From positions 128,524-192,523 of the forward strand of contig JBBDNA010000006.1 in assembly GCA_040877915.1 (NCBI GenBank): 64,000 nt of DNA. Reading direction: 5' to 3'. Below the pieces are notes generated by a model. The model ran no database searches. It was not told the DNA's origin and was given only the letters and a program-made list of their open reading frames with translations. A program made the position numbers and the translations under genes. Shown one piece after another: positions 6,776 to 51,296 of this stretch; position 1 is the first letter of the stretch, and every line of letters starts with the position of its first letter. Origin of the DNA: Dehalococcoidia bacterium (GTDB lineage Bacteria > Chloroflexota > Dehalococcoidia > SM23-28-2 > RBG-16-64-32).

Positions 6776-6831
6776 TCTGTACTATTCTCGTGGATGTGCC
6801 GACATCTTTCGCGACACTGGTTAGCCCAACT

Positions 6832-7010
6832 CGTTCTCCCTGAGCCGCCCGGAGTCCGCCAGGGGCGGACGGAGGGCGAGTCGAAGGGCTTCGCCAGCGC
6901 GTCGTAATCGCACCTTTGTGCGCATAGCGGACAGCCTTCGTGTTCGTACGTATCGACGAAGCACTTCGACAAACCGGCCTGCCTGCCGGCAGGCAGGCTC
7001 AGTGCGAACG
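6832..7010. repeat. Inverted pair of CTGAGC..GTCGAAG / CTTCGAC..GCTCAG repeat arms, each carrying an inserted hairpin
   Basis: Left arm CTGAGC(6840-45)-34 nt hairpin-GTCGAAGGG(6880-88); right arm CTTCGAC(6964-70)-24 nt insert-AGGCTCAG(6995-7002); insert overlaps a perfect 22-bp palindrome GCCTGCCTGCCGGCAGGCAGGC (6977-6998). Confidence 0.8.
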
Positions 7011-7160
7011 GATCGCTGGCTGAAGCGGCTCGGACGACGGGAGTCGTTACCGTTGCATCAGCCGTCGCTACGGTTTATGGATAGCACCATCCAGTCGCCG
7101 AATCCACCTGTGAGCGCGGTCACACCGGCGCCTTACCCGTTGCGCTAAACTGGTGTCGCC

Positions 7161-16851: not shown

Positions 16852-17559
16852 CTAGCCTCTAACCCGCCCCTGCCTGCCGGCAGGGAGGTCCACACCCGCC
16901 AGCGCTTCACGCAGCCGCGAGATGTTCTCCGTTACCGATGCGCTCTCGTTGAAGACGGCCGAGGCGGCGACCAGCGACGTGGCGCCGGCGGCGGCGCAGA
17001 CCGGCGCGTTGCCGGCCGTCACCCCGCCGTCGATCTCGATCTCCGTGGCCAGCCCCGCCTCGTCGATGAGCTGTCGCAGGCGTCGCACCTTGGGCAGCGC
17101 CGACTCGATGAACTTCTGGCCGCTCCAGCCCGGGTTTACGCTCATCACGATGACCTGGTCGAGCTCCGGCAGCAGCGGCTGAAGGACGTCGACGCCGGTG
17201 CCGGGGTTGAGGCAGGCCCCGGCCAGCTTGCCGCGCCCCCGTACCTCTCGCGCGATCCGGTGCAGGTGCGCCGTCGCCTCCACGTGCACGTTGATGATGT
17301 CGCCGCCGGCGTCCATGAACGCGCCGGCGTGGCGCTCCGGCTCCACGATCATCAGGTGGACGTCCAGCGGCAGCCCCGTCACGCGTCGAACCGCCTCCAC
17401 GATGGGCAGGCCCAGCGTTATCGGCGGCACGAAGCGGCCGTCCATCACGTCGATGTGGATCGCATCGGCGCCGGCCGCCTCCGCCTCCCGCACCTGCTCC
17501 CCCAGCCGCGCGAAGTCGGCCGAGAGGATCGACGGGGCGAGCTTGACGCCGGCCGCCAC
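16852..17559 (-). CDS. rpe: Ribulose-phosphate 3-epimerase
   Basis: LAPSILSADF, IHIDVMDGRFVP, DVHLMI, MSVNPG, EIDGG; GTG overlaps the argH stop. Confidence 0.95.
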   Translation of the reverse strand: MAAGVKLAPSILSADFARLGEQVREAEAAGADAIHIDVMDGRFVPPITLGLPIVEAVRRVTGLPLDVHLMIVEPERHAGAFMDAGGDIINVHVEATAHLHRIAREVRGRGKLAGACLNPGTGVDVLQPLLPELDQVIVMSVNPGWSGQKFIESALPKVRRLRQLIDEAGLATEIEIDGGVTAGNAPVCAAAGATSLVAASAVFNESASVTENISRLREALAGVDLPAGRQGRVRG

Positions 17560-44063: not shown

Positions 44064-44286
44064 GTAGGGTCGACCTTCAGGTCGCCCGCGACCGCAGCCC
44101 GCGTCCAGATAGCCCCGCCCACCAACCTTCGTCCTCCGGGCCGGCCCATGTAGCGGAGGTCCCTTCGACTTCGCTCAGGACATGCTTCAGACCTCCAGCC
44201 TCCAGCCCTGCCCTGAGCCCGCCGTAGGGTCGCCGCCCACAGTCTCGCCAGCGCCCGTTCGCACTGAGCCTGTCGAAGTGCTTCGT
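44064..44286. repeat. REP-like repeat cluster after gltB
   Basis: GTAG/TTCA hairpin 44064-87; GTAG/TTCA hairpin 44150-96 interrupted by a 24-bp CCTTCGACTTCGCTCAGGACATGC insert; (CCTCCAG)2; CTGAGCCTGTCGAAG unit 44256-86. Confidence 0.85.
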
Positions 44287-51207: not shown

Positions 51208-51296
51208 GCGACCATTTTAACGCCTGCCTGCCGGCGGGCGGGCCCCGCGACGCCTTTGACCGACCTCCGCGTTGACCCTATCATTATCGACGCGCC

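Follow-up and report, generated by a model that had tools for sequence, protein, structure and literature searches.

What is the short palindrome that interrupts a repeated sequence at 6956-7010 of this stretch of Dehalococcoidia DNA, and how could it have come to lie there? The stretch, called the window throughout, comprises 64,000 nt and corresponds to C6:128524-192523 of a genome assembly (G000) of 2.14 Mb in 21 contigs (68% GC, 71.5% complete); the contigs of this genome are designated by C, the genomes of relatives by G and the compared loci by L, each followed by a number. Three consecutive blocks make up the site, namely ACGAAGCACTTCGAC (6956-6970), AAACCGGCCTGCCTGCCGGCAGGC (6971-6994) and AGGCTCAGTGCGAACG (6995-7010), and the reverse complement of 44256-44286 consists of those same 31 bases with the middle 24 missing. 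A preliminary description of the window had proposed a filled and an empty site at these positions, and this is confirmed, 6956-7010 being the 31-mer of 44256-44286 (minus strand) plus 24 bases. The inserted module itself is a 20-bp perfect palindrome, CCTGCCTGCCGGCAGGCAGG, hereafter PAL, a precise 20-nt block whose presence or absence distinguishes orthologous as well as paralogous sites, with no duplication of the target.

The window copy is one PAL insertion plus four junction bases in the right arm of a composite repeat of 220 bp, the arms of which are inverted versions of a TTCGAC-N2/3-GCTCAG unit found 114 times in the genome vs. once for a control pattern. With the flanking G and C the palindrome grows at this site to 22 bp (6977-6998), and the empty junction of the unit reads TTCGACAA|GCTCAG. 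The host repeat is also filled at C3:66672, TTCGACAAG[20 bp]CTCAG, where the insert is exactly 20 nt in the alignment of 10 paralogous host copies, and the ACCG bases of the window copy are private to it, no other PAL copy having them; 24 nt is therefore not the length of the unit. The 24 extra nt of the preliminary description are thus real at this site, but the module is 20 nt long and the larger figure is a one-off 20 + 4. As for the empty state, the copy at 44256-44286 lies outside any composite element (49% identity beyond the 31-mer), and a better empty site is provided by C2:61290, the nearest paralogue of the window element (86% identical); the other filled copy is less similar to the window element (81% identity).

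Throughout the genome, CCTGCCGGCAGG was found 18 times and the full 20-bp PAL was exact in 13 of these cases, vs. none for the reversed pattern, which served as the control in the same searches; when up to three mismatches were allowed, 39 matches were obtained vs. four for the control, with about 33 near-exact copies. These differences indicate that the abundance of PAL is not due to chance. As single-stranded DNA (ssDNA), PAL would fold into an 8-bp stem with a 4-nt loop (-8 kcal/mol). Only about three of the roughly 33 copies are truly intragenic, and a role as transcription terminator was ruled out by the lack of a T-run after PAL. Beyond this genome, exact copies are patchily distributed, being found in 13/41 relatives (as many as 16 per genome in other families of the order) and in 12/401 sampled genomes of the class, the reversed control giving zero in all 41 and all 401. 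PAL is also present in 31 phage contigs of IMG/VR (38-68% GC). Metagenomes of many projects and assemblers contribute at least 120 stretches, of which 80 were fetched, 63 of them below 50% GC; PAL is frequent in the groundwater assemblies of the Hainich. The 20-mer does not vary between hosts and phages of widely different composition (about 30 to 70% GC). Besides, a one-base variant, CCTGCCTGCCGGTAGGCAGG (CCTGCCTACCGGCAGGCAGG on the other strand), occupies seven sites of this genome (e.g. C1:114994, C3:44892, C3:78039, C3:86225, C6:317676 and C19:7479) and recurs in a relative (L161) and in a contig of 33% GC (L265:4377). It has the look of a sub-family that propagates separately. In L214 (3880-4142), a related unit of 21 nt is repeated in tandem at least 10 times.

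Mobility was assessed by the comparison of PAL loci between congeneric species of two genera, g17 (G022 vs. G016) and g3 (G002, G017 and G023), the compared metagenome-assembled genomes (MAGs) being incomplete and the polarity of each event resting on parsimony and protein outgroups. Nine filled/empty locus comparisons were obtained: the difference is exactly 20 nt at six non-coding sites and a net +18 or +21 nt at three coding ones, and no target-site duplication was detected at any filled/empty site compared, including 6/6 non-coding ones. In g17, the gap is clean at two intergenic sites (L115/L138 and L116/L139); in g3, it is found at four non-coding sites (L126/L162, L130/L165, L147/L166-167 and L154/L174), one of these comparisons involving a paralogue in the same genome. 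Within the genome under study, a paralogous filled/empty pair was also observed between C12:51939, ccaagctgcgT[CTGCCTGCCGGCAGGCAG]Gcgattcatcgcgcag, and the region upstream of C6:250536, ccaagctgcgcgattcatcgcgcag. Older shared copies decay: in L141, L161, L163, L168-170 and L173, they carry 1-3 mismatches or small deletions with flanks 89-96% identical, and one shared copy of g17 has decayed at 3/20 bases, so that exact copies must be young. Taken together, these comparisons show many independent and recent insertions.

When PAL enters a protein gene, the reading frame is preserved at the level of the net change. The gcvPA gene of this genome encodes DVSD[GAVPAGR]QVENG, a 7-aa insert (net +21 nt) found in none of 12/12 relatives; in g3, the two coding sites, each at net +21, read EVPVL[LPAGRQG]... 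and, in an ArgS-like protein, LY[LPAGRQG]...; in the hemD-like gene of G022, GLD-LPAGRQAPRVRRWRT-AAIGP faces GLD-ARAFAGAKA-AAIGP in the other species, the insert combining PAL, nine frameshifted codons and a loss of 2 nt, i.e. a net +18. All coding copies compared with homologues read (L/V)PAGRQ. The net change is a multiple of three in every case (+21 in three, +18 in one), and since the base gained or lost lies beside the 20-mer, this reflects selection on surviving events rather than the design of the unit: purifying selection in genes leaves only such events. The earlier suggestion that a length divisible by three lets the module into genes is not supported in that form, as 20 nt is not such a length and the 24 nt of the window lie in non-coding DNA; what stands is the net multiple of three within genes, as a selection filter only. 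At one coding site, PAL in G017 (L160) corresponds in G002 and G023 (L177 and L178) to 44 nt, the ends of which resemble the halves of PAL (net 24 nt) and which may represent a further small insert at the centre of PAL.

PAL lands at structured or repeated DNA and occasionally in protein genes. It is located directly 5' of CTCAG in TTCGAC..GCTCAG units, twice in this genome and in L100, L101, L106 and L131, and directly 5' of CTCGCAATGAC or CTCAGAATGAC in GTCATTGCGAG..GCAATCTC units (GCGAG^), four times in this genome, with other copies in units of this second type in L097, L098, L102, L110, L123, L157, L234 and L293. It is further found within the TGAA loops of GTAG REPs (L114, L126 and L148) and in the D, variable and T loops of tRNA genes; in phage L205, a tRNA-Met of 92 nt has PAL as a long variable arm and returns to the canonical 72 nt once PAL is removed in silico. 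A discrete palindromic module lying inside other repeats, as put forward in the preliminary description, is supported by this recurrence at the same point (5' to CTCAG or CTCGC) of two types of repeat unit in several genomes, by the REP and tRNA loops and by the 20-nt filled/empty differences. Compared with shuffled flank pairs, the flanks of PAL in phages and metagenomes are enriched 4-10 fold in direct or inverted repeats with a minimum length of 6-7 nt, and the base immediately outside PAL is seldom A. On some phage and low-GC contigs, PAL stands between two direct repeats of 7-14 nt (L189, L183, L199, L242, L255, L258 and L261), with tctcgtctctcgct on both sides in L189.

Regarding a possible partner enzyme, the open reading frames (ORFs) within 2 kb of PAL were clustered over 115 phage and metagenome loci. 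Besides phage structural genes, the only genes recurring near PAL in the 31 phage contigs, the sole recurrent family was a GIY-YIG protein of 80-90 aa (PF01541, E 1e-14 to 1e-18). Five loci share a single layout, in which a partial 5' tRNA copy with PAL in its D-arm is followed by the GIY-YIG gene and then by an intact tRNA without PAL, the GIY-YIG ORF beginning 17-50 nt beyond PAL. These cassettes, at 32-66% GC, involve differing tRNAs: tRNA-Asn in L259, tRNA-Ser with two decoy copies in L265, tRNA-Lys in L288, a phage contig in L212 and, in Dehalococcoidia, tRNA-Leu in G022:C21, where the GIY-YIG protein has 79 aa. PAL is restricted to the decoy copy in these tRNA cassettes, and it flanks the GIY-YIG gene on one side in four of them and on both sides in L265. 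The profile of the PAL-adjacent proteins matches the UPF0213 structures 1zg2 and 1ywl as well as the structure-specific nuclease Slx1, and NCBIfam has no name for them. A GIY-YIG profile search of the phage contigs yielded three loci, one adjacent to PAL, one with another hairpin and one without; on a phage contig of 33% GC, the same layout bears another 20-nt hairpin at the D-loop spot, 14/20 positions of which match PAL.

The genome under study has three small GIY-YIG genes of its own. The first one (C6:194290-195150, minus strand), about 1.8 kb past the end of the window, is bordered by GTCATTCCGAGGAGCGCAGCGACGAGGAATCT on its 5' side and TTCCTCGCTTCGCTCGGAATGAC on its 3' side, with GTCATTCCGAG..GGAATCT repeats on both sides that resemble a published Ssn-related motif. 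The second (C19:9955-10269, minus strand) lies between inverted TTCGAC..GCTCAG units, which suggests that this 114-copy repeat is the cognate motif of the nuclease. The third belongs to a cassette (C6:250200-251100) with a near-complete tRNA-Ser decoy carrying a 24-nt hairpin, GGCAGACGCCCGCCCGTCTGGGCG, in its T-loop, the GIY-YIG gene and an intact tRNA-Ser, a further copy being found beyond an assembly gap. Since GIY-YIG genes are flanked here by such repeats, the host repeats of PAL can be considered as nuclease-associated hairpin repeats.

The explanation that we favour, with a probability only slightly better than even (about 0.55), is that PAL is a non-coding and non-autonomous insertion module of 20 bp, mobilised in trans as an ssDNA hairpin by a structure-specific GIY-YIG nuclease, by analogy with the published Ssn enzymes. 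In the single-stranded state, PAL would form its hairpin; a structure-specific nuclease supplied in trans would cut it out or copy it, and the unit would then be set into the exposed loops of other folded single strands, with a joining step yielding variable junctions (+1, +4 or -2 nt). The best candidate for such a nuclease would be the small UPF0213/Slx1-like GIY-YIG protein encoded 17-50 nt from PAL in the tRNA-decoy cassettes.

Several observations weigh against this explanation. The mechanism is one that we infer, no cleavage, excision or insertion having been observed. The three GIY-YIG genes of this genome all adjoin repeats other than PAL; the genomes with the most PALs (G028 and G035, 16 each) have no small GIY-YIG gene in their assembled part but only UvrC; small GIY-YIG genes are common in PAL-free relatives too; and only one of about 90 PALs in Dehalococcoidia adjoins such a gene. 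The PAL-adjacent proteins are 34-46% identical to one another with an invariant PAL, which is odd for a co-evolving pair. In addition, the empty TTCGAC..GCTCAG arm, taken as ssDNA, folds no better than its shuffles, so that the notion of a hairpin loop does not fit every target, and the 7-14-nt direct repeats around some low-GC and phage copies could be target duplications or pre-existing tandem repeats.

A bolder version can only be advanced tentatively, as we consider it rather doubtful: PAL would be a complete 20-nt transposable unit aimed at DNA structure and moved by tRNA-homing UPF0213/Slx1-like GIY-YIG nucleases across several phyla and phages, where the PAL in the D-arm of the decoy would mark the site of cutting and insertion and the solo copies, among them the one at 6978-6997, would have arisen off target.

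Template switching or short-patch gene conversion is the main rival, although we hold it to be unlikely. No dedicated enzyme would be needed: a stalled nascent strand would copy PAL elsewhere, snap back by virtue of its self-complementarity and return. The nature of the targets (hairpins, small repeats and tandem repeats), the heterogeneous junctions (+1, +4, -2 and +9 net) and the sites of Dehalococcoidia without target duplication would all be expected from such a process, which would also accommodate the PAL-rich G028 and G035 with their lack of a small GIY-YIG gene. Microhomology is moreover available, as an abundant subfamily of the host repeat natively has CTCAG after the right half of PAL, i.e. 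GGCAGGCAGGCTCAG. Microhomology would however predict ragged ends, whereas the six non-coding events have clean ends and a length of exactly 20 nt, and no homology to PAL exists at ggg^tgtg, at ctgga^cgccc or in the tRNA loops. Neither the identity of one sequence across hosts of 30-70% GC nor the presence of PAL beside GIY-YIG genes in five unrelated loci is explained by this route.

The other rivals are minor. PAL could be a functional motif, either an operator or protein-binding hairpin or an RNA hairpin, kept by selection and carried passively in repeats and GIY-YIG cassettes. A perfect palindrome of 20 bp is typical of the binding sites of dimers, several copies of this genome lie just upstream of start codons or next to -10-like boxes, and the distance of 17-50 nt to the GIY-YIG start codons would allow autoregulation; the copy shared by L111 and L122 in g17 keeps 20/20 bases with flanks only 86% identical. 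Most shared orthologous copies nonetheless decay no slower than their flanks, the coding, tRNA-loop and phage intergenic copies have no common neighbour gene, and clean 20-nt presence/absence at unrelated unique sites requires insertion, whatever the later use; we rate this explanation as improbable. More improbable still is that PAL is what remains of a larger element with cargo, in the form of its joined ends (a solo footprint), as could be imagined from a 290-bp unit with PAL at both ends in one phage contig (L201): pairs of CCTGCCTGCC ... GGCAGGCAGG spaced by 25-3000 nt do not outnumber those in the opposite order (2 vs. 2 in this genome), the same null result being obtained in the 115 phage and metagenome loci with PAL-PAL pairs and one tandem array excluded, no ORF family lies between split halves, and the GIY-YIG genes stand beside whole PALs, not between halves. 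Finally, an assembly, library or contamination artefact, raised by the suspicious identity of a GC-rich 20-mer in contigs of 30-70% GC and by a slight over-representation of copies close to the ends of contigs, is nearly excluded because of orthologous copies with diverged flanks and decayed PALs in separately assembled species and because of the compensating frame changes in coding copies, together with tRNA-gene flanks that are continuous across PAL and the occurrence of PAL in assemblies of many projects and assemblers.

Among known repeats, the closest parallel may be sought in the SDR4-6 repeats of Nostocaceae, which Elhai and colleagues reportedly described in 2008 as gene-less units of 21-27 nt, mobile according to filled/empty comparisons and nested in repeats, hairpins and short tandem repeats. 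PAL is likewise a tiny gene-less unit with mobility deduced from filled/empty sites (the nine comparisons and the phage tRNA), and its 20 nt fall just under that size range. Unlike SDRs, which are not palindromes, it is a perfect palindrome of unrelated sequence, spread over Chloroflexota, uncultured low-GC lineages and phages, and it has also entered protein and tRNA genes and occurs next to GIY-YIG genes; to our knowledge, no enzyme has been identified for SDRs. Their occurrence has been reported in Nostocaceae only (PMC5861425).

The Ssn nucleases, which are small single-domain GIY-YIG enzymes, make site-specific cuts in ssDNA beside dispersed hairpin repeats (NTS/SRM) flanking their genes (Chenal et al., 2025; PMC11893778); repeat binding, cleavage and an effect on transformation were described there, but not that the repeat inserts into loops, into tRNA decoys or into genes (PMC11893778). 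An Ssn-like arrangement exists in this genome, where the GTCATTCCGAG..GGAATCT repeats stand on both sides of a GIY-YIG gene as published for ssnA and its repeat, the SRM. PAL has been found inside repeats of this type, and its GTCATTGCGAG host repeats do resemble the SRM; PAL itself, unlike the SRM (HGTCWY..RNCYNB), has no GTCWY head. With respect to the Ssn clade cd10448, the PAL-adjacent proteins are placed only by PF01541 and by the UPF0213/Slx1 structures, so the likeness is one of shared logic.

REP/REPIN-RAYT systems and GTAG-tagged REPs are short, GC-rich, dispersed palindromes of 20-40 bp (Bertels and Rainey, 2011, PMC3116915; Di Nocera et al., 2013, PMC3733652). Like PAL, they are thought to move as ssDNA hairpins and are sometimes found in genes or nested in other palindromes; unlike them, PAL is a perfect palindrome with flanks devoid of GTAG or CGTC consensus, and it inserts into REP loops. 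A RAYT/Y1 transposase (PF01797) was rejected as partner: the only Y1 gene of this genome (C12:112238-112567) has GTAG-GGACAGAGC hairpins rather than PAL on its flanks, and across the 41 genomes the presence of Y1 does not track that of PAL. The region C12:112100-112660, with its RAYT-like Y1 gene between the GTAG-tagged REPs GTAGGGACAGAGCTTTAGCTCTGTCC and GGACAGACCTGAAGGTCTGTCCCTAC, constitutes a separate repeat system.

Rickettsia palindromic elements (100-150 bp, one lineage) are inserted in frame in protein genes and translated. PAL is a palindrome translated in genes as well, though of 20 bp, with the frame kept by an extra or missing base and an addition of 6-7 residues. GC clusters and ultra-short palindromic elements of fungal and algal organelles are GC-rich hairpins, usually of 30-50 nt, that have spread in AT-rich genomes, genes included. 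They have in common with PAL to be small GC-rich hairpins and differ by their organellar location and their sequences; we know of no link between GC clusters and GIY-YIG/tRNA cassettes. A miniature inverted-repeat transposable element was discarded, PAL being 20 bp in total vs. a body of 70-300 bp with terminal inverted repeats and a target duplication of fixed length, and no duplication being present at 6/6 non-coding sites, with direct repeats of varying length on the flanks of some phage and low-GC copies only. As regards a tRNA intron of the bulge-helix-bulge or group I kind, which interrupts the functional gene and is removed from the RNA, PAL lies in the decoy and not in the intact tRNA of the GIY-YIG cassettes, and in the otherwise canonical tRNA-Met of L205 it makes up the variable arm. 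A literature search by repeat sequences returned unrelated primer matches only, and no description of the PAL 20-mer or of its insertion into tRNA decoys or genes was found in the searchable literature, which is incomplete.

The features of the window are listed in Table 1.

Table 1. Location of the host repeat, PAL copies and related features in the window.
Feature	Position	Strand	Remarks
Composite repeat	6830..7057	+	about 220 bp, about 10 genome copies; fills the spacer between an aminotransferase gene and the next gene
Left arm	6830..6894	-	inverted unit of the same kind, with a 34-nt hairpin insert at the TTCGAC^GCTCAG point
Right arm	6956..7011	+	CGAAGCAC-TTCGAC-AA^GCTCAG-TGCGAACGG, interrupted by PAL
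Additional bases ACCG	6973..6976		placement ambiguous by 1-2 nt; insert of 24 instead of 20 nt
PAL	6978..6997	strandless	inserted module, 13 exact genome copies vs. 0 reversed
Second PAL	16869..16888 (C6:145392)	strandless	CCTGCCTGCCGGCAGGGAGG, one mismatch; intergenic
Paralogous empty unit	44256..44286	-	31-mer without PAL, found three times in the genome
PAL-like copy	51223..51242 (C6:179746)	strandless	CCTGCCTGCCGGCGGGCGGG, two mismatches; divergent intergenic spacer

Besides its two inverted arms, the composite element comprises a spacer (about 60 nt) and a tail that is conserved, GACGACCGGGAGTCGTTGCCGTTGCA, and every copy is intergenic; its paralogues, about nine, include C2:61186-61400, C3:37411-37600, C4:79113, C8:45645, C12:153324, C19:19734 and C20:23189. 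A search of the whole window against Rfam at the gathering threshold returned no family. The flanking aminotransferase assigns the window to the Dehalococcoidia MAGs (Chloroflexota). In the closest named relative (L017), whose aminotransferase shares 83% aa identity, the syntenic spacer is 165 bp long with no repeat element, and it is uninformative for PAL because the whole host element is absent there. The 34-nt hairpin of the left arm (window 6846-6879), TCGCCCTCCGYCCGCC..GGCGGACTCCGGGCG on the strand of the unit, is found at TTCGAC^GCTCAG in 9-10 units; its interior is present in nine host copies, with stems that differ from copy to copy in a way that looks partly compensatory, and it may be an older nested insert. 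At 44150-44196 of the window, a unit of about 24 nt, CCTTCGAC..GCTCAGG, occupies the loop junction of a GTAG/TGAA REP hairpin, ggaggtctgaag[catgtcctgagcgaagtcgaagg]gacctccgctac. Small units nested within each other are a general feature of this genome.

In terms of biology, PAL appears to rank among the smallest units of mobile DNA observed so far. If the favoured explanation is true, a unit of 20 bases with no signal beyond its own hairpin would be mobile across very different hosts, which would bring down the lower size limit of mobile DNA, and structure-specific GIY-YIG nucleases, described as ssDNA cutters only in 2025, would become candidate engines for orphan bacterial hairpin repeats. 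The same unit would provide housekeeping proteins (GcvPA, HemD-like and ArgS-like) with 6-7 residues containing (L/V)PAGRQ, and would remodel the tRNA genes of phages and of bacteria with small genomes. On the practical side, PAL would account for small indels, contig breaks and spurious ORFs in MAGs, and a nuclease/hairpin pair placing a defined 20-mer in ssDNA loops would make a useful tool.

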